A stretch of 64,000 bases of DNA from positions 2,274-66,273 of the forward strand of contig DIAS01000056.1 of assembly GCA_002415855.1 (NCBI GenBank), read 5' to 3'. Every line of letters begins with the position of its first letter. Position 1 is the first letter of the stretch. The notes below the pieces were generated by a model. The model saw nothing but the letters and a program-made list of their open reading frames with translations, ran no database searches and was not told where the DNA came from. Shown here piece by piece: positions 7,333 to 48,232 of the stretch. Origin of the DNA: Bacteroidales bacterium UBA5072 (GTDB taxonomy: Bacteria > Bacteroidota > Bacteroidia > Bacteroidales > UBA10428). The position numbers and the translations under genes were made by a program.

Positions 7333-8346
7333 ATGGCATTTAAGGATAATTATTCCAAAGGCTGTAAAGCCTGTCAGAATGGTAAATGGTTATGCATTTT
7401 CCTTACTTATCAGTGCAATGCTGCCTGTACATTTTGTCCTGCTCCCTTTAAAAACAGGGATCTTATTAATTCTGCCCTGGGCAATGATCCATCCACCATA
7501 CTGGGATATCTGGAATTATACCCCTTCGAGGGGATTAGTTTTTCAGGAGGAGAATGTTTTATTGTTTATGACAGAATGCTTTCCTGGCTTGATTTTTTTA
7601 AAAAGAATCAGCCACAGTTATACTATTGGGCCTATACCAATGGAATCGATATCAAAAAGGAACAGCTCGTTGATTTAAAAAACGCCGGACTAAACGAATT
7701 GCGTTTTAATATTGCCGCTTCCGGTTATAATGATCCCTTGGTTTTAGAATCCATTGCAGATGCATCAGAAATCTTTGAGCATGTAACGGTTGAAATTCCA
7801 TCCATACCCGATGATTTTGAAAAACTCATTAAGACTATACCTCTGCTGGAGAAAATGCGGGTAGACTATTTAAATCTTCATGAATACCTCCTGGTTGCAG
7901 GTGATCCGAACAGCAAGAATGCTCCGGCAGGGCGGTTCCTTATGAACCTTAGTATGCCTATGGATTATCATCAGAAAAGCTTGCTGAATACTGAGAAAAT
8001 AAGTTCTTTTTGTGCCGAGAATGATTTTAACATAAAAATAAACAACTGTTCGCTCATGAAAAAGGAGCATCAGATGTATGGAAGAAGAATAACCATGGGT
8101 ACGCTGTTTAAAGAAGATCATGAAAAGCTTACGAAGGATGGATTTCTTGAAACAATATTCTCCCCGGGGAGAATTTCTGATGAGGTGGATGAAAACCTAA
8201 GTAACTATCATAGGGCAGATCGGTCATATTTCATTCATCCAGATCACTTTACGAAAACCGGATCCGATGCTTATCTGTTAAAGATTATGCCAAAACTGGG
8301 TGTAAATGACCACCCCAGAGTCATTGAGTACACAAAGCTCACATGA
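7333..8346 (+). CDS. radical SAM protein with no SPASM tail
   Basis: CxxxCxxC motif LTYQCNAACTFCPAP and a GGE motif SFSGGECF. An extra N-terminal Cys pair is present (CKACQNGKWLC). First gene of the plus-strand operon. Confidence 0.75.
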   Translation: MAFKDNYSKGCKACQNGKWLCIFLTYQCNAACTFCPAPFKNRDLINSALGNDPSTILGYLELYPFEGISFSGGECFIVYDRMLSWLDFFKKNQPQLYYWAYTNGIDIKKEQLVDLKNAGLNELRFNIAASGYNDPLVLESIADASEIFEHVTVEIPSIPDDFEKLIKTIPLLEKMRVDYLNLHEYLLVAGDPNSKNAPAGRFLMNLSMPMDYHQKSLLNTEKISSFCAENDFNIKINNCSLMKKEHQMYGRRITMGTLFKEDHEKLTKDGFLETIFSPGRISDEVDENLSNYHRADRSYFIHPDHFTKTGSDAYLLKIMPKLGVNDHPRVIEYTKLT

Positions 8347-9954: not shown

Positions 9955-10401
9955 ATGAAAGAAACACATAACCGTCGTGTATTCCTGCAAATTGTGACAA
10001 AAGGTATCCTTTTAGGAACAATATCTTTTGGCTATTTTAAATTAGGAAAATCGTTTGAATTATCCCCCCCGGGTGATCGGATGAAGGCTCAGATTCCAAA
10101 AATTAATCCGGCCTTCAGGGTGAATGTTTTAAATGACGGTTCGGTCGAATTGTATACGCATAAGCCGGGTGGAGAAAAGGTTATTTATACGTTTGAAGGA
10201 TTTGAGGCAGAAACCCTCTTAACCATTCTTAAGCATGGAGATCCCAGTTTGTACTCACAGGAATTGGGCCTTAAATTTAATATCAGGGAAAATGATTTCA
10301 TTTCTATGGCTGAATCAACATTACGATCAATGGAGAACAAAGGATTTATCTATTATGGTGAAACAATGCTCGTAGAAATAAAGGAAGCAAGAAATGAGTA
10401 A
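9955..10401 (+). CDS. PqqD-like (RRE-like) protein with an N-terminal twin-arginine-like / TM segment
   Basis: Residues ~48-135 (PKINPAFRVNVLNDGSVELY...FEGFEAETLLTILKHGD...LRSMENKGFIY) follow the PqqD beta-strand plus winged-helix pattern. The N-terminus HNRRVFLQIVTKGILLGTISFGYF resembles a Tat signal or membrane anchor. 8-nt overlap with the downstream rSAM gene. Confidence 0.5.
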   Translation: MKETHNRRVFLQIVTKGILLGTISFGYFKLGKSFELSPPGDRMKAQIPKINPAFRVNVLNDGSVELYTHKPGGEKVIYTFEGFEAETLLTILKHGDPSLYSQELGLKFNIRENDFISMAESTLRSMENKGFIYYGETMLVEIKEARNE

Positions 10402-11722
10402 ATCATTCAGGATCTCTAGTGATCTTTTTACAATCCCTCATGAGGGTGATATTTCCATACTCTATGCCCCTAAGTTAGGCTATCTCATCAGAGCGAACAA
10501 GGATGTGATCAATCTGCTGGCTGACTTACCCAAGATCGACAGTGATCTCCTGAATGAAAAACAACGCAAGGTCCTTCAGCACCTGGAAGAACACGGTATA
10601 TTAAACGGTCCCTCCGAACCTGAAACAGGGAAAAACGGACAGGATGCATTTGCTCCTACCAGGGTCACCTTATTTCCCACCAACCAATGCAACCTGAGAT
10701 GCATTTATTGTTATGCTTCGGCAGGTGAACATCCTCCTGTGACAATGAATTGGATCTACGCCGTTTCAGCCATTGAAACGGTTATCAAAAATGCTTTAAA
10801 TACCGGTGATAAAAACATCAGTGTCGGTTTCCACGGGGGCGGCGAACCTTTGCTCCCCTGGAATTTTATAAAAAAGGTCACTGGCTATGTCCAGGAAGAA
10901 TGCAGAAAGAATAATCTGAATGTAAGCATTTATTCGGCTACCAACGGATTGCTGAGTGAGAAACAGCTTGAATGGATCACCGGGCATTTTTCTGATCTCA
11001 ACATCTCCTTTGACGGACTGCCGCATGTTCAGGACTATCACAGGCCACTGCCCAATGGCCGGGGTTCATTTAAATATGTTGACAGGACATTCAGATTTCT
11101 GGACAACAAAGGCTTTAACTATGGGATAAGAAGCACGTTCAGCGATTATAACATCGACCTGATGGAAGAGAGTTACGATTTCATTGTAGCGCATTACCAT
11201 CCAAGAACAATACATTTTGAACCTGTATTTCAATGCGGAAGATGCAAGACCAGCGGGCAATTCGATACAAACCTCGAAAAATTCGCCCGTTATTTCAAAA
11301 AAATAGATGATAAGCATGGGGACAAAAAGGTAAGATTTACCTATTCCGGATGCAGGGTTGAGACCCTGGCCGATTCCTTCTGCGGAGTTGCACGTGATGG
11401 TTTCTCTATCACCCCCGATGGTCATATAACAGCATGTTTCGAAACCACATCCCTGGAAGATCCAAAATCAAGGTATTTCTTTTATGGAAAAATTGATGAA
11501 AACAGGAACATCAACATCGATGAGGAAAAAAGGAATTACCTGCATCATTTAACGGTTGATAACATAAGGTACTGCAAGGATTGTTTTGCAAAATGGCATT
11601 GCGCAGGGGATTGTGCTGCCAAGCTCGGCCACGATGACCTTCATGGTGACCGGGGACATGACCGCTGCCTGCTCAACCGGCGAATGGTTAAGGATAAACT
11701 GGTCAGCATGCTCAGCATATAG
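10394..11722 (+). CDS. radical SAM/SPASM peptide-maturase-like enzyme
   Basis: FPTNQCNLRCIYCYASAG, GFHGGGEPLL, and a SPASM-like tail CGVARDGFSITPDGHITACF ... CKDCFAKWHCAGDCAAK. The N-terminal ~90 aa look RRE-like. Confidence 0.85.
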   Translation: MSKSFRISSDLFTIPHEGDISILYAPKLGYLIRANKDVINLLADLPKIDSDLLNEKQRKVLQHLEEHGILNGPSEPETGKNGQDAFAPTRVTLFPTNQCNLRCIYCYASAGEHPPVTMNWIYAVSAIETVIKNALNTGDKNISVGFHGGGEPLLPWNFIKKVTGYVQEECRKNNLNVSIYSATNGLLSEKQLEWITGHFSDLNISFDGLPHVQDYHRPLPNGRGSFKYVDRTFRFLDNKGFNYGIRSTFSDYNIDLMEESYDFIVAHYHPRTIHFEPVFQCGRCKTSGQFDTNLEKFARYFKKIDDKHGDKKVRFTYSGCRVETLADSFCGVARDGFSITPDGHITACFETTSLEDPKSRYFFYGKIDENRNINIDEEKRNYLHHLTVDNIRYCKDCFAKWHCAGDCAAKLGHDDLHGDRGHDRCLLNRRMVKDKLVSMLSI

Positions 11723-11754: not shown

Positions 11755-12165
11755 ATGGCCCGGACCAAACCCCCAAACGACAGGTTAAAAGTAACCGACG
11801 GATTGCAAAATGATAATCCGGAGATAAGGGATACCATTAAGCTCAAAGTCCCCGATAAAGAGGTGCACATCATGCAGCCCGAGGAACAGCCTCCTGCAGG
11901 GGGTGGGGGCAGCAGCGGCGGGACCTGCTCCTGCCATTCGGTATGTACCTGTGTGCCGGTAAGCTCGTGTGCCTGTAACATGGTATGCACCTGCGATACC
12001 GTATGCAGCACGGATCTTTGTTCCTGTCATCCCTATTCAGGCTGCACACCGCACACCTGCACGTGTGTCCCGGTATGTTCGTGTGACTCCTATTGCACTA
12101 CTTGCTCCACCTGCTCTACCTGCTCTACCTGTACAACAGGTGGAAGTTACTGGTATCCCTGTTGA
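11755..12165 (+). CDS. Cys-rich putative precursor peptide (56-aa Cys-free leader plus 80-aa core with 22 Cys)
   Basis: Leader ...QPEEQPPAGGGGSSGG is followed by TCSCHSVCTCVPVSSCACNMVCTCDTVCSTDLCSCHPYSGCTPHTCTCVPVCSCDSYCTTCSTCSTCSTCTTGGSYWYPC. It lies 32 nt after an rSAM/SPASM gene. No signal peptide. Confidence 0.65.
   Translation: MARTKPPNDRLKVTDGLQNDNPEIRDTIKLKVPDKEVHIMQPEEQPPAGGGGSSGGTCSCHSVCTCVPVSSCACNMVCTCDTVCSTDLCSCHPYSGCTPHTCTCVPVCSCDSYCTTCSTCSTCSTCTTGGSYWYPC
12094..12132. repeat. 9-nt tandem repeat (tgcWCYacY) encoding C-T-T / C-S-T x3 / C
   Basis: Direct read: tgcactact tgctccacc tgctctacc tgctctacc tgt. Confidence 0.8.
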
Positions 12166-12204: not shown

Positions 12205-14739
12205 ATGATAACCAAAAGAATCCTGTTGCTTTCGGTGTTTATTTGCTTCCATTGGTGTCTGTTTGCGCAAACACCGGGAACTATGAAATGGGTGTTCACA
12301 ACCGGTAATGATGTTTCATCCTCCCCTGCTATTGGAAGTGATGGGACGATTTATGTAGGTTCAGAGGATAGCAAGTTGTATGCGATAAATCCGAATGGGA
12401 CAAAAAAATGGGAGTTTTTAACCGGGGGGAGTATATATATTTCTTCCCCTTCTGTTGGGATTGACGGAACAATCTATGTTGGTTCCTCTGACAATAAAGT
12501 TTATGCGATAAATCCTGATGGTACAAAAAAATGGGAGTTTACAACCGGGGGAATAATTTATTCTTCACCTGCCGTAGGATTCAATGGAACTGTATATATC
12601 GGTTCCAGTGATTTTAAACTGTATGCTATTAATCCCGATGGAACGGAAAAATGGGAGTTTTCTACAGGAAGTTGGGTGGATTCCTCCCCGGCAATTGGCA
12701 TTGACGGAACAGTTTATATAGGTTCCTGGGATAATACATTGTATGCTGTGAATCCTGATGGTACCAAGAAATGGGAATTCTCTGCCGATAATTGGATTGA
12801 TTCCTCCCCGGCAATAGGGAGTGACGGAACGATCTATGTCGGATCATTTGATAATAAAATATATGCAATAAATCCTGGCGGTACGAAAAAATGGGAGTTC
12901 TCAACTGCCGGAGCTAATAGTTCTTCACCGGCTGTTGGGATTGAAGGTACAATCTATGTTGGTTCCGGGGACGGCAAAATATATGCCATTAACCCTGACG
13001 GCACTAAAAAATGGGAGTTTCTAACCACCGGAGTTGTTAGCTCTTCGCCAGCAATAGGGAAAGACGGTACAATTTTCATTGGCTCATCACTTAATAGAAT
13101 GTACGCACTTAATCCTGATGGCACCAAAAAATGGGAGTTTTCAACCGGATTGGGTTCTTACTCCTCCCCTGCCATTGGAAGTGATGGCACAGTTTACATA
13201 GGTTGTGATGCCAGTTATCTTTATGCCGTTCGCTCGGATTGCGGAGGCCTGGCCGAAAGCTGCTGGCCTAAATTCAGAAAAAACATTGTGAACAATGGCA
13301 GTGCAGCCGCTGCTATTTATGCTGATACCAGGTTTTATGCAAAATTTACAAATGCTGCATCTCTTTCATTTGAAACCGATTTTTATAAAATACCGGGCAA
13401 ACCTGTTATCATTACCGGGATAAAATTGAGTAACAGCAATCTGTCAGCTGGATTATCGTTACCATATACACTCAATGCGGATAATACCGAATTCTTCATA
13501 CCACTCAACATGTCCAATCCACATACCGGCCTATGTGCGACGGCTATTGAACTTCAGTACCTTTATGACGGTGTTGCAATGACCAGTACGGACTACCTGG
13601 ATCTGGCCGTAATTGTTGATGACCACACGGAATTAAGCGTGGTCGGTAAAAGTGCCGTTGAGGCTTACCAGGCTTCCCTGGATGTTAATCCGATTGCAGT
13701 TGTGAATAACAAAGGCGTGATCTACAGGTTGCTGGATGAACCTGAAAAAGCCAAACCGCTCTTTAATACTGCCGTTAGTCTTGCCCTTGGGGAGTTTTAC
13801 GGATTTACCGGCATCAAAATGAATCAGGGGGTGGTCATGTCTGATCTTGGTTATAATGCGGACGCTGTGGGTTATTATGCCAACACCCTGGCGGATCTGA
13901 CAGGAGTGGAATCATCATCGGTTTTAGCGCCCCAGGTGTATTACAACCAGGCCTGGGAATATTATAATTCTGAAAGTTTTAATGACACAAAGACCAAAGC
14001 CCTCCAGACCATCAATCACCCGAAAGCAAACAACTTTCTCAAAGCGAAAGCCTATGTTTTATTAGGTTTATGCGATGCAGCCCTGGAAGATACCGCAACA
14101 GCCATTGATCACCTGCAGGATGCCGTTGATCTTGATCCTGCTTCCTGTATCGCAGAAATCGCAAAGGAGGACATTTGCATCCTGAGCACTGACCAGTATG
14201 AAAGAATATCCATTTGTGAAGGTGAAAGTTATGCGGGACTTACCGAATCCGGACAATACCTGCGCAAACTGGGATCAGGGACCGGCAGCACCAGTTATGT
14301 AATTACCATCCTGACGGTAAATCCGAAATATGACATTGCTATTGACACCACGATCTGTGAAGGGCAGAGCTATAACGGGTGGACCACAACCGGTGAGTAT
14401 GTGCAGAACCTGACTTCATCATGTGGTTGTGATAGCACAGTCACAACGTTGCTCACAGTGAAGGATTGTTCTTCTGGTATTGAACAAATGCAAAACATTA
14501 CATTTATCATTTATCCGAACCCAAGCAACGGTGATATTACAATAATGATCCCGGATAAATCTGCCGGTTCGCTTTTCATTGAGATCCAGGATATGACAGG
14601 TAACATTGTATTCAGCAACATGTTGCATTGTACAGAAAGCACTTGCAGGATTCATCTTGATCATATGCCGGCCGGAGTGTACTTTATTTCTGTTGAAAGC
14701 AGGGGAAAGAGGACTACCAAGAAAGTGATGATCTATTGA
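12205..14739 (+). CDS. secreted 8-bladed PQQ-like beta-propeller protein with TPR-like middle region and T9SS C-terminal sorting domain
   Basis: Signal peptide, then eight ~40-aa repeats (GTKKWEF.T.G.I.SSPAIG.DGTIYVGS.D.KLYAINPD). Two CEG.SY.G...G.Y...L....GCDS repeats follow. C-terminal IYPNPSNGDITI...GVYFISVES...KKVMIY is a Por/T9SS CTD. Confidence 0.8.
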   Translation: MITKRILLLSVFICFHWCLFAQTPGTMKWVFTTGNDVSSSPAIGSDGTIYVGSEDSKLYAINPNGTKKWEFLTGGSIYISSPSVGIDGTIYVGSSDNKVYAINPDGTKKWEFTTGGIIYSSPAVGFNGTVYIGSSDFKLYAINPDGTEKWEFSTGSWVDSSPAIGIDGTVYIGSWDNTLYAVNPDGTKKWEFSADNWIDSSPAIGSDGTIYVGSFDNKIYAINPGGTKKWEFSTAGANSSSPAVGIEGTIYVGSGDGKIYAINPDGTKKWEFLTTGVVSSSPAIGKDGTIFIGSSLNRMYALNPDGTKKWEFSTGLGSYSSPAIGSDGTVYIGCDASYLYAVRSDCGGLAESCWPKFRKNIVNNGSAAAAIYADTRFYAKFTNAASLSFETDFYKIPGKPVIITGIKLSNSNLSAGLSLPYTLNADNTEFFIPLNMSNPHTGLCATAIELQYLYDGVAMTSTDYLDLAVIVDDHTELSVVGKSAVEAYQASLDVNPIAVVNNKGVIYRLLDEPEKAKPLFNTAVSLALGEFYGFTGIKMNQGVVMSDLGYNADAVGYYANTLADLTGVESSSVLAPQVYYNQAWEYYNSESFNDTKTKALQTINHPKANNFLKAKAYVLLGLCDAALEDTATAIDHLQDAVDLDPASCIAEIAKEDICILSTDQYERISICEGESYAGLTESGQYLRKLGSGTGSTSYVITILTVNPKYDIAIDTTICEGQSYNGWTTTGEYVQNLTSSCGCDSTVTTLLTVKDCSSGIEQMQNITFIIYPNPSNGDITIMIPDKSAGSLFIEIQDMTGNIVFSNMLHCTESTCRIHLDHMPAGVYFISVESRGKRTTKKVMIY
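12283..13230. repeat. eight tandem ~120-nt coding repeats (propeller blades)
   Basis: The atgggagtt(t/c) (KWEF) landmark recurs at 12408, 12531, 12651, 12771, 12891, 13011 and 13131. Confidence 0.85.
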
Positions 14740-14776: not shown

Positions 14777-15862
14777 TCAGGCAAATAAAATCCCTGCCTT
14801 ATGCATAATCACTGAAATATTGATATGATTCGGGCATCTTTCTTCGCAACTTTCACAGGCAATGCAGCAATCAGCCGTTACATCAAGCATGTGGTAATCC
14901 CGCTGAAAGAAGTTTTTCCCCTTGACCATATTGAATTGATTCCATAGGCCGATTACTTTTGGAATATCAATACCCTGCGGACAGGGTAAACAATAATTGC
15001 AGCCTGTACAAAGAACAAGCCTTTCATCTCTTTCCTGCGCGACCATTTCATTAATGAACGCAGTATCAATAGGGGAAAATCTCTCCCCTCCTTCGATTTG
15101 GATGTTGCTGTCAATTTCTGATTTTGTCTGCATTCCCGAAAGGACACAATGAACATGTGGATTGGAATACGCAAATTTTAAAGCAATTGCCGGGATGGTT
15201 GCATGGAAATATTCTCTAAGCCTGGGAAAATCCACAAACGAATCTGTAAGTACTCCCCCGGCCAGCGGATTCATAACGATCACTCCCAATCCTCTGTTGT
15301 ATGCATATTGAATGGCATCTTCATAGGTACGATTGAGCATATTGTATGAAAGTATAACTGCATCAAAAGGTCCCGCATCAATAAGCTTTATAATGTTTCC
15401 GGGAGTGTCATGACTGCTGAATCCCAGGTACCTGATCAGACCATCTCTTCTGGCCCGGTGAACCTGTTCGATGATCCCTTCTGCCAGAAAATGCTTCTCC
15501 CATGACTTGTATTCCAAATAATGGATGAAATAAAAATCCAGTGCTTCCCTATTATAAAGATGCAGTGTATTTTTCAGTTGCGCTGTCCAGTTTCCAGGAT
15601 CAGACAGATGGGTCGTGTTTTTGCCGCTTAAAATGACTGCTGGTTTCTGGTCATTTATTGCCAGACCAAAGACTTTTTCACATTGAAAATGACAATAGAA
15701 GGTCCCGATATCGAAAAAGTTGATTCCAGTCTTTAAGGCATAATGCATTAAAGATATGGCTTCTGTAAAATCAATTGATTGCGGTGCAATGGGCAGCCTC
15801 ATCGCCCCAAACCCAAGTGCAGAAATATAAAAGTCAGTATTTCCAAATTTTTTATAATCCAT
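14777..15862 (-). CDS. aldo/keto reductase with C-terminal 4Fe-4S ferredoxin-type domain
   Basis: AKR N-terminus (ISALGFGAMRLP). C-terminal CTGCNYCLPCPQGIDIP ... CIACESCEERCP. The start overlaps the stop of the 1121-aa gene by 11 nt. Confidence 0.8.
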   Translation of the reverse strand: MDYKKFGNTDFYISALGFGAMRLPIAPQSIDFTEAISLMHYALKTGINFFDIGTFYCHFQCEKVFGLAINDQKPAVILSGKNTTHLSDPGNWTAQLKNTLHLYNREALDFYFIHYLEYKSWEKHFLAEGIIEQVHRARRDGLIRYLGFSSHDTPGNIIKLIDAGPFDAVILSYNMLNRTYEDAIQYAYNRGLGVIVMNPLAGGVLTDSFVDFPRLREYFHATIPAIALKFAYSNPHVHCVLSGMQTKSEIDSNIQIEGGERFSPIDTAFINEMVAQERDERLVLCTGCNYCLPCPQGIDIPKVIGLWNQFNMVKGKNFFQRDYHMLDVTADCCIACESCEERCPNHINISVIMHKAGILFA

Positions 15863-18800
15863 ACTGCATCAATTCTTCCACCATTTTTGAAATATGCCAT
15901 GATCCGGAACCGGTAAGCCGGAATTCACTATCCGATTTCTCAATAAGGTCATAACTCAACCACTTTTCAAAGAGTGTCTCCATTTTAAAGTAGGTGACAT
16001 CACTCTCCGGAACGATACCACCGATCAGTCGTGCTTTAATCAAACGTCGTTCCAGTTCCCTGGGCTTAAGATATCCACCACCCTGCAGTGGAGGAGAAAT
16101 CATTTGTTTATGAGACAGATACTCTTCAATCCACTGATGTACATAGTAGTAGTCATCAAAAATACCATCTGCCGTCGGACCCAGGGCCAGCAAATCTTCA
16201 TTCCGGCATACATGATTGTAATACAGGTTTCTATCCTCTTTCTTGGCATAATGTACAAAATGATTCTTCTTATACCCCGATCGGATGAGATATTGGTCTG
16301 CCAGTTGAAAAAGAAAATAATCATAAACCGGTGATCTTTTAAAACCTCCAATATTAGCAAAGAAAGCCTTGTTCTTATCGGTGATGTTCAATTGATACAG
16401 GGAGAAACCGTGTATTCCGGATTTGCATAACTCAGCCAACGTATGTAACAATGATCCCGCATGCTGAAAAGGAAGGCCGTAGAGTACATCAACGGAAACT
16501 ACAAAACCCATTTTCATGGCGTCCTCAAGTTTTAATAATACCTCCCGGGCCGTTTCTTTTCGGCCCAAAATCTTCCTGATTGGATCATCCAGGGTTTGAA
16601 CCCCAACCAGTAACCTGCGAAATCCTGCTTCAGACAATATCCTAAGCTGTTCCCCGGAAAGCAAGCTGGTTGTGGACTCCAGCGCTATTTCAGTGGTGTC
16701 GGTGATTTTCAATCCCTTTCTCAAACGATCGGTTAAAGCATGGAGTTTTTCCGGCGGCAAATAGCCAGGAGTCCCTCCGCCAAAATGAATGCTTGTTACC
16801 GGCCTTTCGGTGATATTGGAATTTTGCGTCCACAATGCTATCTCTGAAAGCAGAAGCCTCGTAAATTCGGATATTTTTTCAGCGTTTCTTTCAGGAACGG
16901 CCATGGAATAACAATCACAAAAGTTACACTTCCTGTCGCAAAAAGGAACATGCACATATAACGAATAAGGACTGGAAACTGGTTTTGAGATCTTCTCCTG
17001 AAGGACCTTCCAGCACTTATCCGGGCCATGGAGTAATCCGTTTTCCAGCCATTCAGGTGAAGGCATGGTTTTCAATCTGTTGTGGTAATCTCCGGGGACC
17101 TTTTCCCATTGCTGCTGTATCCTGTCAAAATCCGTTTCAGGCGGGATCTGATGTTCAATCCGTTGAATAACCCTTTCGAACTTATCCGTATTCTTCTTCT
17201 TTTTTCTCAGAATCTGCTGACTTTTCTTGCCGGAAGCTGCTGTCATTTTTTTCTCCCAATAGACCCGGCAATAATTACAGGAAAAGCAATTATGATCACA
17301 ATACAAAGTGTGCTTAAAGAACGCCTGGTCAATATCAATAGACTCGTTTACGGAAGCAGGTCCTCCGCCGATCTCATTTGGGCTCAGGTCTTTTCCCTTA
17401 AAGTAATGCGTAAGGACTTTCAGGTAATTATCCGGGTTTCTCAGTGTACTCCTGCCTGCGAGCTTCAGGTCATCATATAATCCATCATACAGGTCAAGGA
17501 ATTGTGGCAATATCCATGCACCGGTCAGACGAAGCCAGGGATGCCGGAAAAGCAGCTCCCGGCAAAGTGACTCAGGATGTCTAATACCTGGTGATCCCAT
17601 TTCATAAAAATGCTGTATCCGGTGAACGCAACCAGGTAGACAGGCCTCATTAACGAGCAGACGAATTTCACCCTGGAAGCATTTTCTGATTTGGTTCAAT
17701 ACTGCTATATTTCTCAGGATCTTTCCGGAAGGAACGACAGTGTCAAACAATCCTTCCAGCATGATTAACTGGGAAGATGATGCAATATCCATCAAGGTGG
17801 AAGCCGTAAGGGATATTTCAGGAAATTCCTTTCTGATCAATCGTGCCAGATCAACATTTGACAAGGTAATTTCCCGGATTTCAGTTTTTTTGATGATCTT
17901 TTCAATTTGCTGAATAATTGAAGGTCCGATTTTTTCAACCTTATCAGGTAAAACGATAGGATTGATGATCAGGTTCTTTTTGCACTTTGTTTCTTCCAGG
18001 AAAGATGCCAGATGTATCATCGGTTGAACCGGACGTCCTGAAGGTATTGTAGTGTCTGGCAAAGGAAAATAAATACCACGAATGCTTTCCCCATGAACGG
18101 AATTGAGTTTTTCCCAGAATTCTGGCGGTTGGTCAATATAGGGAATGGTGTATTTTGAGGCGACTGCATTTTTCTTGCTGCTGTCATTGACCGTCCCTCC
18201 CCCTGCTTGAATAATTTCCAAGCCTGATTTGAGATATGCCGTTGACGGAACCGGCTGCCCGTTCTCTATTCTCTTAAACCGGTTCAAAACCTGTGCCCTG
18301 CACCCTCCATAACATTCACCCTTGAGGAAGAGATCACATTTCGTGCAGTGGGGGAAAATCCCGGTCGACCTGAAAGGTTCCATTTTTTTAAGAAATACCT
18401 TTCCTATCTCGCCGGTATCCTGATAATCACTCAGCTTTAACTTTTCAGTGGCATGAAAAAGGGGAAAACACGAAACAACATTTCCATCCGGCAGTATATC
18501 AGGGAGAGGATTACACCTTTTTCCAATGTCTTTATAATGTTCTTCAATCATTTCTTTAAGTTCCTCAGGGAACATACATGGGACAAAACCACAATCGAAA
18601 CTTATCCGAACGTTCTTGCCGGACGCATCCTGAAGAAACCGAGCCAGATGGTTACCTGTAGCCTGATAGAATTTAGGATGAAGATATTGATTGGCAGGTG
18701 GTACAACAGGATGCGCAAGCCCTAGCCTGATATCAGGAGCAAGGTTGTACCTTTCGATCATTGGCAAAACATAGTCCAGATCCTGCCCGGGACGATAGAT

Positions 18801-19217
18801 ATTAATGCCCAGTCCCGCCTTTCTTCCGAGAAATGCAAGTGCCCTTCTCTGAGCCTTTAGATCAGCATGTTCATCGGAAGGATCAATACAATTAATACAA
18901 AATTTTATTCTTTCATCAGGGAATTGATCAATCTCAGCAAGTATATTTTCCTTCATCAATCCATTGGAGAATATGCTGATATTGAATCCCTCATCTAATC
19001 CAAGTCTGATAAGGGAAAGGAATTCAGGATGCAAAGAAGGCTCCCCACCCAGCAGGCGAAGCTCGCTGACACCGGAATTCTTTAAAAATCCCAGAATATG
19101 AAAGAAATTTGAAAGGCTCATGCTGCTTGTTTCAAATGCTCCCGATTTTCTGAATCCTGTAGCGAAGCAATAGGAACAGTTACGATTGCAGGAATCAGTT
19201 ATGATAAGATTTGCCAT
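15852..19217 (-). CDS. three-domain fusion: radical SAM/SPASM-like + peptidase-U32-like + HemN-like radical SAM
   Basis: aa 1-320: ITDSCNRNCSYCFA, LLGGEPSL, CTKCDLFLKGECYGGCRAQ. aa ~355-655: U32-like (EITLSNVDLARLIRKEFPEISLTASTLMDI, LLVNEACLPGCVHR, LKLAGRSTLRNPDNYLKVLTHYFKG, CDHNCFSCNYC). aa ~745-1121: HemN/HemW-like (YVHVPFCDRKCNFCDCY, IHFGGGTP). Confidence 0.8.
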   Translation of the reverse strand: MANLIITDSCNRNCSYCFATGFRKSGAFETSSMSLSNFFHILGFLKNSGVSELRLLGGEPSLHPEFLSLIRLGLDEGFNISIFSNGLMKENILAEIDQFPDERIKFCINCIDPSDEHADLKAQRRALAFLGRKAGLGINIYRPGQDLDYVLPMIERYNLAPDIRLGLAHPVVPPANQYLHPKFYQATGNHLARFLQDASGKNVRISFDCGFVPCMFPEELKEMIEEHYKDIGKRCNPLPDILPDGNVVSCFPLFHATEKLKLSDYQDTGEIGKVFLKKMEPFRSTGIFPHCTKCDLFLKGECYGGCRAQVLNRFKRIENGQPVPSTAYLKSGLEIIQAGGGTVNDSSKKNAVASKYTIPYIDQPPEFWEKLNSVHGESIRGIYFPLPDTTIPSGRPVQPMIHLASFLEETKCKKNLIINPIVLPDKVEKIGPSIIQQIEKIIKKTEIREITLSNVDLARLIRKEFPEISLTASTLMDIASSSQLIMLEGLFDTVVPSGKILRNIAVLNQIRKCFQGEIRLLVNEACLPGCVHRIQHFYEMGSPGIRHPESLCRELLFRHPWLRLTGAWILPQFLDLYDGLYDDLKLAGRSTLRNPDNYLKVLTHYFKGKDLSPNEIGGGPASVNESIDIDQAFFKHTLYCDHNCFSCNYCRVYWEKKMTAASGKKSQQILRKKKKNTDKFERVIQRIEHQIPPETDFDRIQQQWEKVPGDYHNRLKTMPSPEWLENGLLHGPDKCWKVLQEKISKPVSSPYSLYVHVPFCDRKCNFCDCYSMAVPERNAEKISEFTRLLLSEIALWTQNSNITERPVTSIHFGGGTPGYLPPEKLHALTDRLRKGLKITDTTEIALESTTSLLSGEQLRILSEAGFRRLLVGVQTLDDPIRKILGRKETAREVLLKLEDAMKMGFVVSVDVLYGLPFQHAGSLLHTLAELCKSGIHGFSLYQLNITDKNKAFFANIGGFKRSPVYDYFLFQLADQYLIRSGYKKNHFVHYAKKEDRNLYYNHVCRNEDLLALGPTADGIFDDYYYVHQWIEEYLSHKQMISPPLQGGGYLKPRELERRLIKARLIGGIVPESDVTYFKMETLFEKWLSYDLIEKSDSEFRLTGSGSWHISKMVEELMQYGL

Positions 19218-19218: not shown

Positions 19219-19488
19219 CTATGAGCTTAATAAACTGCTGACGATCCAACTGTCAATATTCTTCAACATCCAGAGCACAGTTTCCGGCTTATCCTTTTTT
19301 AAAATCGGGGCCAGCATATCGGACATTGCGGTAAATGAATAACCCTGCTGGATCATATTCCACAAAGCTGCTTCCGGATATGGAATAACTACCATTTTGT
19401 TCAGATCTCCCGAATAAACCTTGATACAGTTAACTTCAGTCGCATACTCAATCTGCCCGTTCAGGCTATATCTGGTCTTAGGATTCAT
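19219..19488 (-). CDS. PqqD-like (RRE-like) small protein
   Basis: 89 aa. KMVVIPYPEAALWNMIQQGYSFTAMSDMLAPIL...WIVSSLL fits the PqqD pattern. 11-nt overlap with the upstream rSAM gene and a 1-nt gap to the downstream fusion gene. Confidence 0.5.
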   Translation of the reverse strand: MNPKTRYSLNGQIEYATEVNCIKVYSGDLNKMVVIPYPEAALWNMIQQGYSFTAMSDMLAPILKKDKPETVLWMLKNIDSWIVSSLLSS

Positions 19489-20896
19489 GGTTGCTCCAGT
19501 CCGTTAGTTTATCACTGCGCTGCATCGAGAACTTTCTGAGCTGCTGTTCGTCTCCCAAAAAGACTTCGAGAATACCTGGCTGATCGATCTTTCTCATCAT
19601 ATCAATTATTCCCAGAATACGGGTTTGTCTGCAATAATTATCATATACAACAGGTGATCCCGGATAAGTAACATCTACATGACACCCCCCGGCACATATC
19701 CATTTGCAGAAGCATGAAGTGCAACGCGGCTTTTTCTTCACCAGATCGCGTAATCCGGCTATTTTCTCCTGTGAGATGTGCATTCCCCCTGCTTTCATTT
19801 TTCCAACGGACAAATCGAGTCCCCTTTCCTCCCATCTATTCGGTAATAGATAGCAGCTATTGATCTCCCCCTCCGGAGTGACAATAAGTGTATCCTTACC
19901 AACAGGGCAGGAGGAAAATTGAGGTTTTTCCGAAGCAAAGGATGAGTTAAGAACAGTAACGTTATACTTATCAGCTATCTGAAGAGATCGGAGAAATTGT
20001 TCTGCAAACATATATGGATCCGGTTCCAACAGGCCTGCATCTCGCGAGCCTTTATTGGATTTCAGATTCTCAAAATTGATGATCGAAGGCCTAAATGTTC
20101 TGCAAAACCAGTCGGTAATTTCAGGCATTCTGCGAACGCTGACATTACTGATGCATGCTCGCAGGTAGAGTTCAGTGTTGGACTCACTGACAGCCCTGGC
20201 AAATCTCACTGCAGGCTCAAAACTGTCCTGCTTGTTGCGCATTGGCCTTTGTCGGTTCTGAATATCTTCAGGACCATCCAGGGACAGAACCACAGCATTT
20301 ATGTGATCAGTAACAAACCGTGTGATTTTATCAGAAACCAGTCCATTTGTAGATACCTCGAAATAAGGAAGCAGGTCATACTGATCTGCGATCATTCTGG
20401 CATAATGTACAGCAACACTTACAACATCGGGTGCATACAACGGCTCCCCTCCAAAGAAATGAACTTCGAGCTTCTTCTTGTTCAATTGTTTCATTCGGCT
20501 GGCCATCCAATCGATTGCTGCAATTGCCATTTTATAACTCATTTTTTTATTTCTTCTGCCGACATGCTCAAAGTCACAATAATGGCAGGCGCCGTTGCAA
20601 GCTCGGGTCGGGATTAATCCGAGAAAATACGGATCAGGATTGCCTGCGGGTTCACCAGGTAATTCCCTGGTTGATTCCTGTAATGCATTTAAGATAGTAT
20701 CAATTGCTTTTTTCTTAGCCTGGTTTTCCTGCTTCTTTATCAAATAATCATACAGATAGCTTACAGCAGTTTTATCTGTTAATGCAGTTATGGCCTTCAG
20801 TGGTGAATAAATGATAAAATATTCATTTATGGGCAAAACATAGAGTTGTTCAACATCATTAAAATTTTTTGCTTCAATATGAACCAGATTACTCAT
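19478..20896 (-). CDS. radical SAM/SPASM peptide-maturase-like enzyme
   Basis: IPTRACNGACHYCDF, HFFGGEPLY, and a SPASM-like tail FSSCPVGKDTLIVTPEGEINSCY ... CTSCFCKWICAGGCHV ... YCRQTR. The N-terminal ~90 aa look RRE-like. Confidence 0.85.
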   Translation of the reverse strand: MSNLVHIEAKNFNDVEQLYVLPINEYFIIYSPLKAITALTDKTAVSYLYDYLIKKQENQAKKKAIDTILNALQESTRELPGEPAGNPDPYFLGLIPTRACNGACHYCDFEHVGRRNKKMSYKMAIAAIDWMASRMKQLNKKKLEVHFFGGEPLYAPDVVSVAVHYARMIADQYDLLPYFEVSTNGLVSDKITRFVTDHINAVVLSLDGPEDIQNRQRPMRNKQDSFEPAVRFARAVSESNTELYLRACISNVSVRRMPEITDWFCRTFRPSIINFENLKSNKGSRDAGLLEPDPYMFAEQFLRSLQIADKYNVTVLNSSFASEKPQFSSCPVGKDTLIVTPEGEINSCYLLPNRWEERGLDLSVGKMKAGGMHISQEKIAGLRDLVKKKPRCTSCFCKWICAGGCHVDVTYPGSPVVYDNYCRQTRILGIIDMMRKIDQPGILEVFLGDEQQLRKFSMQRSDKLTDWSNHES

Positions 20897-23943: not shown

Positions 23944-24004
23944 ATTATAAGGAGTACATTTTGGCTCATGATTTAGTGTTCATTACCCTGTAATAAAACA
24001 AGCA

Positions 24005-26362: not shown

Positions 26363-26377
26363 CCGTACAGAAGACTC

Positions 26378-29099: not shown

Positions 29100-29222
29100 A
29101 TGTATGGAACTTCTGAAACAGGTTAAAGAAAGTGTCCAATTATTTTACACATTGTGGTGATTATTTTACAGTTTTTACAGAGGCAATTTCATAAGTGGTT
29201 ACCTGTGAAACAAATACATATG

Positions 29223-29237
29223 TGGCATCGAATTTGA
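29223..29237 (+). promoter_or_regulatory. candidate sigma-54 promoter (-24/-12)
   Basis: TGGCAT-cgaat-TTGA, 24 nt upstream of the ATG at 29261. Same form as the element at 23929. A direct repeat ATTATTTTACA x2 (29139-29149 and 29160-29170) lies upstream. Confidence 0.5.
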
Positions 29238-29260
29238 CCTTTTTGCTAAAAACTTGCAGC

Positions 29261-29974: not shown

Positions 29975-30233
29975 GGAAAGAAGGTAAATGGTAAACAGTA
30001 AAAGGTTGCTGCCGTTGCTGCACCAATACTCCAGTCAGAATTTCAGGCAATACAGGCTATCACCAGAGTTGTGCAGACCGGCATGGTGTTTTCGTTGGGA
30101 AGCATGAAAATAGAAGAACCCAAGGCATGTTTCGGGGTGGTCGAAGGCGGGTTTATCTTCATCATGGAAACCACCCGCGGAAAGCATAAGAGAGAAGCCG
30201 TAAAGCAACATCAGACTGTGATTTCAGGAAACC

Positions 30234-32606: not shown

Positions 32607-32656
32607 TGACACATTGCGACACGACTTTAAATAATTAGGCTAATAAACCGGGAACC

Positions 32657-35035: not shown

Positions 35036-35100
35036 CGGGAAGAGCTGAAACCTGAAAACCCTGAAAAGATCAAACCAAAGAATCAAGAAGAACAAAAAAT

Positions 35101-46540: not shown

Positions 46541-46624
46541 ATGTTTTTCGGTACACCGCCGTTTGACAGAAATACCTGCACTTGCGACTGCATAACCTCA
46601 TCACGCTATACCAGGATGAATTAG
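46541..46624 (+). CDS. unannotated 27-aa micro-ORF MFFGTPPFDRNTCTCDCITSSRYTRMN
   Basis: Read by hand: ATG at 46541, TAG at 46622, in-frame TAA at 46529. TCTCDCITSSRYT resembles TCICDCIATSHTY in the tail of the downstream WD40 protein but uses different Cys codons (tgc versus tgt). Expression is unproven. Confidence 0.3.
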   Translation: MFFGTPPFDRNTCTCDCITSSRYTRMN

Positions 46625-46831
46625 TCATCCTTACCGGAGTAAAAGGATGATCAGCCTTAAATTGTGAGGATTATAAATTCTTAGCCTAATAAACTATTAA
46701 TTATTTTTTTGTAATTTTAAATATGCTATTCTACTGGAAACCAGTATGAAATAGGAATCATCAATAAGTCAACTTGAATAATAATTAACAAGGAATCCAT
46801 TGTCTTCCAACATACTTTTAATTGTACTAAT

Positions 46832-48232
46832 ATGTTGAAGAAAAATAGAAAAAAACAAACGGAAAAGCCCCAGATCTATGCCTTAAAAAAGGACAAAAAT
46901 GTGTTTTCTTTGTCACGTAAAGAATTCCTCGGAGCTCTTGGTACCATAGGCGCAGGCATGGCGCTATTACCAACTGATGTTATTGCAGATAAAATAGAGG
47001 ATAGCGGTAATAAACACTCCGCATTTAAAGCACATTCCAATACGGTCAACTCAATCTGTTTCAGTCCCGATGGCAAAATACTGGCTTCAGGAAGTAGTGA
47101 TAATACAATAAAACTATGGTCTATACCTGATGGGCAACTGCTGAAAACCATTGAAGGGCATACTAGTTCTGTCCTATCTGTATGTTTTAGCCCCAATGGC
47201 GAAATGCTGGCGTCGGGTGGTTGGGATCGTACCATAAAACTATGGTCCATGCCTTACGGACAACTATTGAAAACCTTAGAAGGGCATTCCAGGGATGTTA
47301 CATCAGTGAGCTTTAACCCCAATGGAAACTTACTGGCATCGGGGAGTGGGGATGATACCATCAAATTATGGTCAGTCCCTGAAGGAAATCCCCTTAAAAC
47401 ACTAAAAGGAAATTCCGGTCGTGTCTGTTCGATATGCTTTAGCCCCGATGGGAAAATACTGGCTTCGGGGAATGATTATTCTACGATTAGACTCTGGGAT
47501 GTCCTGTCATGGTCTGCCCCCAAAGGTAAAATACTTAAAACCTTAAGGGGACATTCCAAGGGTGTTAAAACAGTTTGCTTTAGCCACGATGGCAAAACAT
47601 TGGCTTCGGGGAGTGAAGATACAACCATAAATCTATGGAAAATACCAAAAAGCAAAAAGCAGAAAACCATAGAAGCAAATCCCGCTGATATCTTTGATGA
47701 AATCTTGTCAGTAAGTTTTAGCCCCGATGGAGAAACTCTTGCATCGGGTAGTGATAATACAATAAAACTATGGTCTATACCCGATGGACAACTATTGAAA
47801 ACTTTTGAAGGGAGTGCAATCAAGTCAGTTTGTTTCAGCTCCGATGGAAAAATCCTTGCATCGGGGAGTGGAGATGACACGATTAAGCTGTGGACATTGC
47901 CAGATGGAAAACCTGTTTATGTTTTATTCGACCCGGCAGCTACTGAGAAAACATATGCACGAAAAGTGCGGCAAATGGGACTGGAAACCCATACTCTGCC
48001 TTGCGGTGCGCCAATACCTGCCGGTGCTACTTGTATCTGTGACTGTATAGCCACATCGCATACATACCCGGGTTCTCAAACTGTCTGCACTTGCGATCTC
48101 ATTACCATACCAGTAGATTCGCCATTGTCTGTCGGTATGGTTTGTGTTTGTGATACCATTGTTGTTGGAACCTACACCGCGCCTAACAAAGGTGAAAGTA
48201 CAATTTATATGACCTATTGGTATCCCAATTAA
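46832..48232 (+). CDS. WD40 (7-repeat) protein with Tat-like signal and Cys-rich CxCD C-terminal tail
   Basis: N-terminus LSRKEFLGALGTIGAGMALLP. Seven repeats of the form H...V.S.CFSPDGK.LASGS.D.TIKLWS. Tail: ...PCGAPIPAGATCICDCIATSHTYPGSQTVCTCDLITIPVDSPLSVGMVCVCDTIVVGTYTAPNKGESTIYMTYWYPN. Confidence 0.85.
   Translation: MLKKNRKKQTEKPQIYALKKDKNVFSLSRKEFLGALGTIGAGMALLPTDVIADKIEDSGNKHSAFKAHSNTVNSICFSPDGKILASGSSDNTIKLWSIPDGQLLKTIEGHTSSVLSVCFSPNGEMLASGGWDRTIKLWSMPYGQLLKTLEGHSRDVTSVSFNPNGNLLASGSGDDTIKLWSVPEGNPLKTLKGNSGRVCSICFSPDGKILASGNDYSTIRLWDVLSWSAPKGKILKTLRGHSKGVKTVCFSHDGKTLASGSEDTTINLWKIPKSKKQKTIEANPADIFDEILSVSFSPDGETLASGSDNTIKLWSIPDGQLLKTFEGSAIKSVCFSSDGKILASGSGDDTIKLWTLPDGKPVYVLFDPAATEKTYARKVRQMGLETHTLPCGAPIPAGATCICDCIATSHTYPGSQTVCTCDLITIPVDSPLSVGMVCVCDTIVVGTYTAPNKGESTIYMTYWYPN
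47020..47915. repeat. seven tandem ~126-nt coding repeats (WD40 blades)
   Basis: The segment aatacaataaaactatggtctatacc(t/c)gatgg recurs nearly identically at ~47103 and ~47758. The LASGS/IKLWS landmarks recur about every 126 nt. Confidence 0.7.

Follow-up and report, generated by a model that had tools for sequence, protein, structure and literature searches.

Among described systems, the ranthipeptide/SCIFF pathways (CteB, PapB, ScfB) have a Cys-rich substrate gene beside genes for SPASM enzymes, and their substrates are peptides of about 50 aa. The acceptor motifs in ranthipeptide-type substrates are CX3D and NxxC. In quinohemoprotein amine dehydrogenase, the gamma subunit has a conserved Trp within its modified region and acts in the periplasm with a 7-bladed propeller subunit. 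In the QhpC/QhpD/QhpG pathway, an N-terminal leader guides the SPASM enzyme, which forms several Cys-to-Asp/Glu thioethers within a Cys-rich polypeptide, and this cross-linking by QhpC/QhpD takes place in the cytoplasm and precedes periplasmic export (PMC7876137). RiPP-type precursors with signal peptides include C-terminally modified proteins of more than 30 kDa (PMC13056109, PMC11626156); the DAG-RiPPs with ChrH-type MNIO enzymes (PMC13056109) and the bufferins (PMC11626156) have export/lipoprotein signals and Cys targets, and occur in many phyla. In the anSME system, a SPASM enzyme converts one residue in a catalytic motif of a full-length protein that is still in the cytoplasm and is exported afterwards.

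In this study, a stretch of 64,000 nucleotides from a Bacteroidales genome (hereafter the window, which covers 64 kb of a contig of 220 kb) was analysed around a gene for a WD40 protein with a Cys-rich tail. The features of this gene and its upstream flank, with positions numbered within the window, are as follows.

46541..46752, plus strand: probable remnant of a tail-coding 3' end that has decayed, with module-A-like FGTPPFDRNTCTCDCITSSRYT (E = 1e-3 with the tail profile among 1426 segments)
46832..48232, plus strand: WD40-tail protein gene, 466 aa (ORF list; Pfam WD40 x7; full-tail family profile E = 4.7e-33)
46862..46930, plus strand: N-terminal family motif EKPQIYALKKDKNVFSL and twin-arginine-type SRKEFL, residues 11-33 (alignment of 88 leaders)
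46931..46987, plus strand: h-region GALGTIGAGMALLP and c-region ending VIA, residues 34-52, with DK following a putative site for signal peptidase I
47003..47929, plus strand: seven-bladed WD40 propeller, residues 58-366 (PF00400, 7 stretches, 282.8 bits)
47993..48229, plus strand: Cys-rich tail, residues 388-466 (tail alignments)

The original prediction of a WD40 protein with a Cys-rich C-terminal tail was borne out: seven WD40 repeats are followed by 79 residues (TLPCGAPIPAGATCICDCIATSHTYPGSQTVCTCDLITIPVDSPLSVGMVCVCDTIVVGTYTAPNKGESTIYMTYWYPN) with 8 Cys in PCG, TCICDC, VCTCD and VCVCD and the end TYWYPN. SRKEFL followed by a hydrophobic stretch, also part of that prediction, is present at the N-terminus, which reads ...EKPQIYALKKDKNVFSLSRKEFLGALGTIGAGMALLPTDVIADK. 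With seven PF00400 repeats, and propeller models covering residues 58-366, the ORF belongs to the WD40 beta-propellers, and the DNA of this region is built of a 126-nt tandem unit with 74% matches. The tail consists of module A (TLPCG..TCICDCI), module B (VCTCD...VCVCD..VG) and the end; the variable module C is missing. The gene is intact and retains all invariant residues of the family tail alignment, and an identical protein is present on a 219,859-bp JGI metagenome contig. A promoter and terminator scan around the gene gave nothing informative. In the probable relic just upstream, FYWKPV-stop lies about 110 nt downstream of FGTPPFDRNTCTCDCITSSRYT in another frame, a pattern that suggests a decayed tail.

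With the single tail as query, word-indexed searching yielded no relatives; an exhaustive search afterwards revealed a family of 92 cluster representatives at E<=1e-3, of which 46 reached E<=1e-10. For finding genomic loci, a 7-sequence tail alignment was effective, and a 30-sequence one was too diverse. The invariant tail columns are C4, P9, C14, C16, C18, C32, C34, C51, C53, Y75, W76 and P78, the modules have the form [V/I]-C-x-C-[D/N]-T-[V/I], and the end is [H/S/T]YW[Y/R/H]PN. Between leader and tail, the passenger domains vary (WD40, SH3b, NBR1-like, or none). Members are named in the sources only as 'WD40 repeat protein', 'hypothetical protein' or 'twin-arginine translocation signal domain-containing protein', and our literature search found no description of the tail family or of a system of radical-SAM enzymes and tailed WD40 proteins. 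The tail marks a widespread and apparently undescribed family of proteins with predicted export signals.

Family N-termini share a leader motif, ..(DDRLKPV)..EPEIYAI.K..G..LSRR.FLG, which forms part of a twin-arginine-type signal peptide, and the sole match of the leader HMM in the window was the WD40-tail ORF (E = 1e-6). The twin-arginine position in about 58 family N-termini is RR in 45 and RK in 12, the latter limited to the window-like subgroup, and 35 of 61 members have a lipobox-like Cys at the place of the window protein's VIA site; the Tat-like signal proposed earlier is thus supported at the level of the family. The window protein itself has RK instead of RR and no lipobox Cys. Its S-R-K-E-F-L-G with a Gly/Ala-rich h-region (best 14-residue Kyte-Doolittle mean 1.76) compares with a Tat consensus of S/T-R-R-x-F-L-K. 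In close relatives, the h-region is likewise followed by A-[DE]K, and signal peptidase I would probably cleave the window protein before DK. TatC is common in Bacteroidetes (PMC3827258), and export of the WD40-tail protein may depend on Tat.

Genome loci with tail genes were numbered with the prefix L, L003 and L004 being in two Bacteroidales MAGs. Radical-SAM homologues of the window lay within 10 kb of the tail gene at 17 of 20 loci, representing at least 8 phyla, whereas none was near any of three WD40 control genes without a tail (0/3), so that the predicted co-occurrence of tails and radical-SAM genes was observed. Among the 16 loci found by the tail only, 12-13 had homologues of the window SPASM enzymes and of a 1121-aa fusion protein (see below) within 10 kb, at 30-72% identity; these linked loci span Desulfobacterota, Bacteroidales, Pseudomonadota, Chloroflexota, Acidobacteriota and Planctomycetota. 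Five further tail-gene contexts contained 2-7 Radical_SAM genes each (Pfam and homology), and at L010, L014 and L016 no radical-SAM gene was found in the range covered. Full-length homologues that are closest to the window protein (56-61% identity) are encoded beside radical-SAM genes, where tail-bearing paralogues form tandem arrays. Tandem paralogous tail genes were also found in L002, L010, L013 and L019, a pattern typical of RiPP precursor genes. The L022 cluster additionally carries a YcaO enzyme, and a conserved partner family of about 150 aa (RRxFF/PqqD-like, alignment A4) matched PqqD 3g2b (E = 4.8e-4).

The original prediction had placed the Cys-rich ORF of the window first and the tail second, as a further substrate of the same maturases. 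The linkage strongly supports the core idea, a tail tied to the radical-SAM cluster as a substrate-type module, and reverses this emphasis: tail-bearing proteins with predicted export signals are the usual partners of the enzyme set across phyla. Since tail genes are nearly always beside several radical-SAM enzymes, a modification substrate of protein size is the most likely role of the tail, and we regard it as likely that the tail enters a radical-SAM peptide-modifying pathway in the cytoplasm and is exported afterwards. As in RiPP-type precursors, it forms a Cys-rich core with conserved candidate acceptors (8 Cys in 79 residues, with invariant Cys columns). Candidate precursor and maturase genes are adjacent in the family (17/20 loci) and for the Cys-rich ORF; the WD40 gene of the window is 35 kb off.

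The same Cys residues could alternatively make the tail an unmodified metal- or Fe-S-binding cluster, metallothionein-like, which would be filled in the cytoplasm and leave by the Tat route, with some other function for the radical-SAM neighbours. CTC[D/N]TVCTC repeats have the CxCxxxCxC spacing, which resembles plant-type metallothionein motifs. Tat typically exports cofactor-loaded proteins, and a Tat-type signal fits such cargo. AF2 predicted no confident autonomous fold for the tail (30 sequences, mean pLDDT 44.5), as might be the case for a domain without its ligand, and related signal-peptide RiPP families are metallophores (PMC11626156). Nevertheless, we consider this explanation improbable, with four findings against it: neither the tail nor the Cys-rich ORF had a match in Pfam or NCBIfam at E<=0.01, metal-binding families and metallothionein models included; the linkage is specific to SPASM-type peptide maturases and PqqD-like partners, occasionally with YcaO; tail genes occur as tandem paralogues, like precursor genes; and D or N is strongly conserved right after CxC (D 36%, N 33%, V 21% of 642 CxC motifs; D or N 69%), which metal binding alone leaves unexplained. 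The tail could, besides, be both modified and metal-binding. An odd Cys number was found in 60% of the tails, which argues against a purely disulfide-bonded fold.

Because the YW.P[N] end is invariant and lies at the extreme C-terminus in every member, behind passengers as diverse as WD40, SH3b, NBR1-like or none, the tail might also be read as a sorting or anchoring tag for an envelope machinery, added to different proteins. Some tail clusters encode GT-C (PMT_2) and GT2 glycosyltransferases, suggesting periplasmic processing. Known CTERM signals, however, typically have a transmembrane helix or a basic tail, both of which are absent here; the tail does not match the T9SS CTD model and has no hydrophobic stretch past module B, no conserved sortase-like protease was found in the tail clusters, and the conserved partners are cytoplasmic radical-SAM enzymes. 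A tag of this kind, which the original prediction also raised as a shared recognition or sorting tag, is highly improbable as the sole role, and it could be compatible with modification of the tail.

The radical-SAM cluster of the window comprises the following genes.

7333..8346, plus strand: radical-SAM enzyme, 337 aa (PF04055), with homologues in L002, L003 and L004
8343..9674, plus strand: radical-SAM/SPASM enzyme, orthogroup 2 (NCBIfam, locus homologues, tree)
9955..10401, plus strand: 148-aa protein with NRRVFLQ and a hydrophobic N-terminus, directly upstream of the SPASM gene 10394..11722
10394..11722, plus strand: radical-SAM/SPASM enzyme, orthogroup 3/5, of the Cys-ORF-adjacent Bacteroidales subclade (tree)
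11755..12165, plus strand: Cys-rich ORF, 136 aa, with repeated CxC modules of type C and the end GGSYWYPC (module C/D profile E = 4.2e-7)
12205..14739, plus strand: protein with BamB/PQQ-type propeller, TPR and T9SS C-terminal domain (Pfam, NCBIfam), downstream of the Cys-rich ORF
14777..15862, minus strand: aldo/keto reductase (AKR) with 4Fe-4S dicluster domain, with orthologues in L003, L004 and the P0095 contig
15852..19217, minus strand: 1121-aa fusion with a radical-SAM module at the N-terminus, a HemN/HutW-type radical-SAM module at the C-terminus and a middle region between them
19219..19488, minus strand: conserved small protein, 89 aa, with homologues in at least 8 clusters
19478..20896, minus strand: radical-SAM/SPASM enzyme, orthogroup 4 (locus homologues, NCBIfam, tree)

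The tree placed one window member in each of three SPASM orthogroups. Enzyme 10394..11722 has homologues in at least 14 tail loci, its best NCBIfam match is PapB and its closest solved structure is CteB (5wgg, E = 1e-25). The closest characterised relatives of the window enzymes are thioether-forming ones, represented by CteB and the PapB, SCIFF and QhpD models. Their scores are far under the curated equivalog cutoffs (PapB 141, 120 and 98 bits vs 340, the first for enzyme 10394..11722; SCIFF 115 vs 425; QhpD, TIGR03906, 81-85 vs 453), so the reaction type is a guess. Homologues of the 1121-aa fusion, whole, split or differently fused, were found in L001-L006, L008/9, L013, L017, L019, L021 and L022. 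The propeller gene 12205..14739 adjoins the Cys-rich ORF in both Bacteroidales MAGs as well (55-56% identity), a conservation that does not extend to other phyla.

The 89-aa protein is possibly a PqqD-like peptide-recognition element. It has a low-confidence predicted topology of three strands followed by three helices; the best Foldseek matches of its single-sequence model (mean pLDDT 49.9) were to the TbiB1 RRE at a non-significant E of 0.55, one family member reached E = 0.048 against Pfam PqqD, and a PDB profile search with the family gave no match. A link between this family and the RRxFF/PqqD-like family was unsupported (hhalign probability 2%). The 148-aa protein has orthologues in the two MAGs only, with about 40% identity, and its assignment to the RRxFF/PqqD-like family was likewise unsupported (hhalign probability 11%).

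The Cys-rich ORF lies 34.7 kb upstream of the WD40-tail gene. It has its own N-terminal region without a signal peptide and contains MVCTCD and VCSCD, and its orthologues in the two MAGs are 76-78% identical with conserved synteny. As originally predicted, the two ORFs share CxC[D/N] repeats and similar ends, that of the Cys-rich ORF being SYWYPC. The pattern [YFW]W[YF]P occurs three times in the six frames of the window, twice at the C-termini of these ORFs, and YW.P.-stop was observed 3 times vs 0.235 expected. The terminal residue is C in the Cys-rich ORF and N in the WD40 tail of the window; the WD40 tails of the two MAGs, which reside in the cluster, end in C like the Cys-rich ORF. A by-eye likeness of NDRLK...NPEI in the Cys-rich ORF to the family leader DDRLKPV...EPEIY gave only E = 28 with the leader HMM, and the idea of leader homology was dropped.

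Whether Cys- and Thr-rich low-complexity sequences resemble each other by chance is a question that the pairwise BLASTP value of merely E = 0.027 raises. In Smith-Waterman alignment, the two sequences scored 68 vs 42.7 ± 8.0 for composition-matched shuffles, of which only 11/2000 matched or beat the observed score (p≈0.005), so that the similarity passed the shuffle check proposed with the original prediction. The proposed HMM search was also carried out, with a module C/D profile built from family members and excluding the window sequences and the Cys-ORF orthologues. Among 1426 six-frame window segments, this independent profile selected exactly these two ORFs, the WD40 ORF at rank 1 (E = 2.9e-9) and the Cys-rich ORF at rank 2 (E = 4.2e-7), the latter with a large composition-bias term. 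Moreover, the Cys-ORF orthologue and a WD40-tail gene are about 4.3 kb apart in one cluster in both MAGs. With the excess of YW.P.-stop, the probability of a chance resemblance is negligible, and the synteny and profile results effectively refute it. The Cys-rich ORF is best read as a signal-less, stand-alone version of the tail module, specific to Bacteroidales.

The neighbours of the WD40-tail gene in the window are unrelated to the radical-SAM cluster. If the tail family is a radical-SAM substrate generally, this gene might still be served by a second cluster elsewhere or be an orphan of rearrangement and decay. The same maturases may act on both ORFs, as the original prediction had it, but the SPASM subclade that flanks WD40-tail genes elsewhere has no window member, and the RRxFF/PqqD-like partner of about 150 aa, which also adjoins those genes, is missing. 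The part of the prediction in which the tail is a substrate-type module tied to radical-SAM clusters stood up to comparative genomics. The two MAGs have [WD40][WD40-tail][SPASM][PqqD-like] between the propeller and AKR genes, which the window lacks. The window WD40 protein is 38% identical to the WD40-tail proteins of these MAGs, compared with 54-78% for most other cluster proteins and about 40% for the 148-aa protein. The N instead of C at its terminus and the tail relic directly upstream point the same way. In the same metagenome there is, in addition, a 42-kb contig that carries 7 radical-SAM genes along with P0095, a tail lipoprotein of the RK type, and P0208, a WD40-tail protein sharing 51% identity with that of the window. 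On the other hand, the window has every SPASM orthogroup and the fusion, which is the full set in the single-copy genomes L001, L008 and L019; the gene is intact with every invariant tail residue kept; and our view covers 64 kb of the 220-kb contig. A second cluster or an orphaned gene is a possibility to be kept in mind, though rather unlikely. We prefer to regard the WD40 gene as a family member that has been displaced to a site 35 kb away from the radical-SAM cluster that may serve it.

Under the preferred reading, the tail would be modified in the cytoplasm by the three SPASM orthogroups and the radical-SAM/HemN-type fusion, aided by small PqqD-like helpers. Thioether cross-links from Cys to Asp/Asn, or to other residues, would be the most likely products, possibly with methylation and a modification at the YW.P end. 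Tat would then export the folded, cross-linked protein, and the signal peptide and the N-terminal motif would be cleaved off together. The Qhp pathway is a precedent for cross-linking ahead of export, and the single polypeptide here, with propeller and Cys-rich part joined, differs from the separate subunits there. The genes qhpA, qhpB, qhpE and qhpF are absent here, and a flavoprotein at 3397-5409 matches QhpG weakly (26 bits vs 240) and has no conserved counterpart at related loci.

The tail clusters resemble the ranthipeptide/SCIFF systems in gene arrangement, in Asp/Asn next to Cys, in candidate PqqD-like recognition elements and in the affinities of the window enzyme, with the sub-cutoff scores given above. 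They differ in that the tail proteins are mostly 400-800 aa and bear predicted export signals of the Tat/lipoprotein type and the invariant YW.P[N] terminus, and in that 4-7 radical-SAM domains, including the HemN/HutW-type module, are present. The DAG-RiPPs and bufferins use MNIO (DUF692) enzymes, none of which was found in any scanned neighbourhood; here, radical-SAM enzymes accompany a twin-arginine-type signal and different motifs, and with neither an MNIO gene nearby nor a lipobox Cys the window protein does not fit the DAG-RiPPs. The anSME enzymes were among the structural and sequence matches, but they act on no repetitive Cys-rich tail and use neither a leader nor a PqqD-like helper.

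One joint reading would combine these features, and we put it forward tentatively, at slightly less than an even chance. The tailed proteins would form a new, phylogenetically broad class in which a motif in the n-region of a Tat or lipoprotein signal brings 4-7 radical-SAM enzymes to full-length proteins such as WD40 and SH3b proteins, at their C-terminal CxC[D/N]-repeat/YW.P[N] module. Export would follow only after cross-linking, the leader would be removed by signal-peptide cleavage, and the tail, once modified, might act as a thioether-caged module with metal or redox activity, like the QHNDH gamma subunit fused to a propeller.

For biochemistry, the 136-aa Cys-rich ORF and the stand-alone forms of 130-190 aa found elsewhere would be natural minimal substrates. 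If the proposed modification is confirmed, radical-SAM peptide chemistry would reach beyond small peptides to proteins of 400-800 aa that are folded and exported, and the signal-peptide RiPPs described recently would gain a counterpart linked to Tat. It would also give a role to a family of 92 cluster representatives so far named generically, and to a conserved multi-radical-SAM cluster of anaerobes in many phyla.

The features considered here are those of the radical-SAM cluster, which extends over 7333-20896, and the WD40 gene:

7333-8346 (+): radical-SAM enzyme
8343-9674 (+): radical-SAM/SPASM enzyme, orthogroup 2
9955-10401 (+): unk148, 148-aa protein with NRRVFLQ and a hydrophobic N-terminus; immediately upstream of, and overlapping, the Cys-ORF-adjacent SPASM gene
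10394-11722 (+): radical-SAM/SPASM enzyme, orthogroup 3/5
11755-12165 (+): Cys-rich ORF (Cys ORF), 136 aa
12205-14739 (+): BamB-type propeller/TPR/T9SS protein
14777-15862 (−): aldo-keto reductase with Fe-S dicluster
15852-19217 (−): 1121-aa fusion with two radical-SAM modules, MoaA/viperin-like and HemN/HutW/NocN-like, on either side of an uncharacterised middle
19219-19488 (−): conserved 89-aa protein, between the 1121-aa fusion gene and a SPASM gene
19478-20896 (−): radical-SAM/SPASM enzyme, orthogroup 4
46832-48232 (+): WD40 protein with Cys-rich tail, 466 aa

ORF translations and Pfam searches bore out the original prediction's description of the WD40 and Cys ORFs. The WD40 protein begins with MLKKNRKKQTEKPQIYALKKDKNVFSLSRKEFLGALGTIGAGMALLPTDVIADK and carries a seven-repeat propeller (PF00400, 7 stretches, 282.8 bits; propeller models cover residues 58-366). 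Its 79-residue tail has 8 Cys in PCG, TCICDC, VCTCD and VCVCD and ends in TYWYPN. The Cys ORF is made up of CxC repeats, MVCTCD and VCSCD among them, with GGSYWYPC at its C-terminus. Pfam and NCBIfam had no model matching the tail or the Cys ORF. Pairwise BLASTP between them was marginal (E = 0.027); their local alignment scored 68 against 42.7 ± 8.0 for composition-matched shuffles, a score reached by 11 of 2000. A profile of tail modules C and D, built from other family members with the window sequences and Cys-ORF orthologues left out, placed the WD40 ORF (E 2.9e-9) at the top of 1426 six-frame window segments, with the Cys ORF next (E 4.2e-7, composition bias high). The likeness of the two is thus not a chance one. 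YW.P. followed by a stop occurred 3 times in the six frames, against 0.235 expected.

Exhaustive phmmer searching with the tail as query yielded 92 cluster representatives at E<=1e-3, 46 of them at E<=1e-10. Four modules were recognized: A, TLPCG.P.P.GA.C.C[D/N]C[V/I]; B, VC.C[D/N]T..VP.G..P.G.VC.C[D/N]T..VG; C, GH.R...G.VC.C[D/N]T[V/I]CTC[D/N][S/T]VC.C, in variable copy number; and D, GG[H/S/T]YW[Y/R/H]P[N], at the extreme C-terminus. The WD40 tail consists of A, B and D, and the Cys ORF of multiple C modules and a terminal D. Twelve columns were invariant in a 30-sequence alignment, and the frequencies of D, N and V directly after CxC were 36%, 33% and 21% over 642 motifs. Passengers were diverse (WD40, SH3b, NBR1-like or none), and the only source names were 'WD40 repeat protein', 'hypothetical protein' and 'twin-arginine translocation signal domain-containing protein'. 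The AF2 model of the tail showed no confident fold (mean pLDDT 44.5) and the Cys count was odd in 60% of tails; a peptide-like substrate therefore fits better than a disulfide-bonded domain.

The family shares a leader of about 35 residues, ..(DDRLKPV)..[D/E]E.PE[I/V][Y/F]A[I/V].K...G..[L/F][S/T]RR.F[L/I]G, whose profile had a single match in the window, the WD40 ORF (E 1e-6). The Cys ORF lacks a hydrophobic stretch, and the leader profile did not recognize its N-terminus (E 28). Among about 58 genuine family N-termini, 45 had RR, 12 RK and 2 RQ, and a lipobox-like Cys followed the hydrophobic stretch in 35 of 61 members. RK was confined to the subgroup nearest the window protein, in which A|[D/E]K follows the h-region instead of the lipobox-like Cys. 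Judged from these motifs, the family N-terminus resembles a Tat-type signal peptide, often of lipoprotein type, and the Tat-like signal proposed for the WD40 protein therefore holds at the family level. Tat generally tolerates a single R-to-K change, with reduced efficiency. TatC is common in Bacteroidetes (PMC3827258).

NCBIfam matches of the cluster enzymes were all far under the family cutoffs (best, PapB, 141 bits vs 340); the nearest solved structure was the thioether-forming CteB (5wgg, E 1e-25). A distance tree resolved three SPASM orthogroups, each with one window member. In other phyla, the parts of the 1121-aa fusion were split, or joined to SPASM enzymes instead. The 89-aa family (alignment A3) is conserved across 8 or more related clusters; its topology was predicted, with low confidence, as three strands then three helices, and its top Foldseek matches, to the TbiB1 leader-binding protein, were not significant. 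Besides the window, unk148 was confined to the two loci from Bacteroidales MAGs, and it matched no family. A protein of about 150 aa, with an N-terminal RRxFF and a C-terminal half matching PqqD (3g2b, E 4.8e-4), was found in tail-gene loci L001 (2268-2729), L002, L003, L005, L006, L008, L013, L017, L019 and L022 and was absent from the window. Its RRxFF is twin-arginine-like but is accompanied by no hydrophobic region, and a Tat-like motif is odd for an apparently cytoplasmic helper.

A scan of the genome collection seeded with the tail alone gave 16 loci, from Desulfobacula, Desulfobacterales, Rikenellaceae, Bacteroidales, Tannerella, Competibacteraceae, other Pseudomonadota, Anaerolineae/Chloroflexi, Acidobacteria/Solibacteraceae, Pirellulaceae and Planctomycetota. 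In 12-13 of the 16, homologues of the window SPASM enzymes (10394-11722, 19478-20896, 8343-9674) and of the 1121-aa fusion lay within 10 kb of the tail gene, mostly adjoining it directly. In L003 (Rikenellaceae) and L004 (Bacteroidales), a Cys-ORF orthologue (76-78% identity) lay about 4.3 kb from a WD40-tail gene ending in HYWYPC, together with orthologues of nearly all window-cluster genes (mostly 50-72% identity; unk148 about 40%). Five extra contexts, picked solely for long contigs or nearness to the window protein, had 2-7 Radical_SAM genes each (Pfam and homology), sometimes with PMT_2/GT2 glycosyltransferases, carbamoyltransferase or YcaO. No Radical_SAM neighbours were present for three control WD40 proteins that have similar propellers but no tail. 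The enzymes were thus present at 17 of 20 tail loci against 0 of 3 controls, so that within 10-kb flanks tails are not common without such a cluster; of the exceptions, L014 is at a contig edge, and L010 and L016 are two contigs of one MAG.

These counts support the type of system proposed for the tail, and the tail is probably a radical-SAM substrate module. The original prediction, that the tail could be a second substrate of the same maturases or else a shared recognition or sorting tag, was largely right and needs re-centring on the family. In the tree, the window orthogroup-3/5 enzyme fell in the Bacteroidales subclade that adjoins the Cys ORF, and the subclade adjoining WD40-tail genes (L001_892, L005_7404, L006_29, L003_10258, L004_10589, L022_3288, L007, L008) had no window member. 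L003 and L004 have an additional [WD40][WD40-tail][SPASM][PqqD-like] segment absent from the window, and their WD40-tail proteins are only 38% identical to the window WD40 protein (whose nearest relatives, in L021 and L022, share 56-61%). The window WD40 tail has N as its last residue; the Cys ORF, like the WD40 tails of L003 and L004, has C. The tail is therefore well supported as a substrate of such a system, and it may be one of the window cluster itself.

In the intergenic DNA immediately 5′ of the WD40 gene, 46541-46752 (+) contains a module-A-like FGTPPFDRNTCTCDCITSSRYT (tail profile, E 1e-3) and, some 110 nt further downstream and in a different frame, FYWKPV-stop. The stretch resembles a degenerated 3′ terminus of a second tail gene and would fit a tandem array that once existed here. 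JGI metagenome 3300075153 contains the window, on a contig of 219,859 bp. In the same metagenome, a 42,385-bp contig carries a second cluster (seven Radical_SAM genes, AKR/Fe-S protein, PMT_2 and GT2) with P0095, an RK-type stand-alone tail lipoprotein, and P0208, an RR-type WD40-tail lipoprotein 51% identical to the window protein.

Between cluster and WD40 gene, 21026-37536 encodes two histidine-kinase/sigma-54 response-regulator pairs, four MacB/FtsX-type permease paralogues and an ABC ATPase. A 670-aa flavoprotein (3397-5409, −), with weak N-terminal matches to QhpG, LodB and halogenase models, was not conserved among related loci. The window start (221-3271, +; CitX-CitG fusion, citrate lyase ligase, SiaC-like regulatory protein) is unrelated to the finding.

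We class the system among radical-SAM-modified ribosomal products. Its nearest counterparts are ranthipeptide/SCIFF maturation, the QhpC/QhpD pathway (PMC7876137), anaerobic sulfatase-maturating enzymes, and the recently described signal-peptide RiPPs, bufferins (PMC11626156) and DAG-RiPPs (PMC13056109), the latter including C-terminally modified proteins >30 kDa (PMC13056109). It differs from all four in its enzyme families, which fall under every curated cutoff, the absence of an MNIO enzyme, the twin-arginine type of signal, large passengers, 4-7 radical-SAM domains per cluster and the invariant YW.P[N] end. The literature searched did not mention the tail motif or this combination of features.

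Any specific chemistry is put forward with low confidence. Radical-SAM enzymes are cytoplasmic and oxygen-sensitive, and the tail would be modified in the cytoplasm, most probably by thioether cross-links from Cys to adjacent Asp/Asn or other residues; methylation by the HemN-type module and a modification of the YW.P end are also possible. Extra YcaO, GT-C (PMT_2)/GT2 glycosyltransferases or carbamoyltransferase in some tail clusters (L022:1598-3328, L017:16996-18717, L019:11389-12102) hint at further tail modifications in some lineages. The N-terminal motif would serve as a recognition element for PqqD-like domains, and the folded product would be exported via Tat, signal-peptide cleavage taking the leader off.
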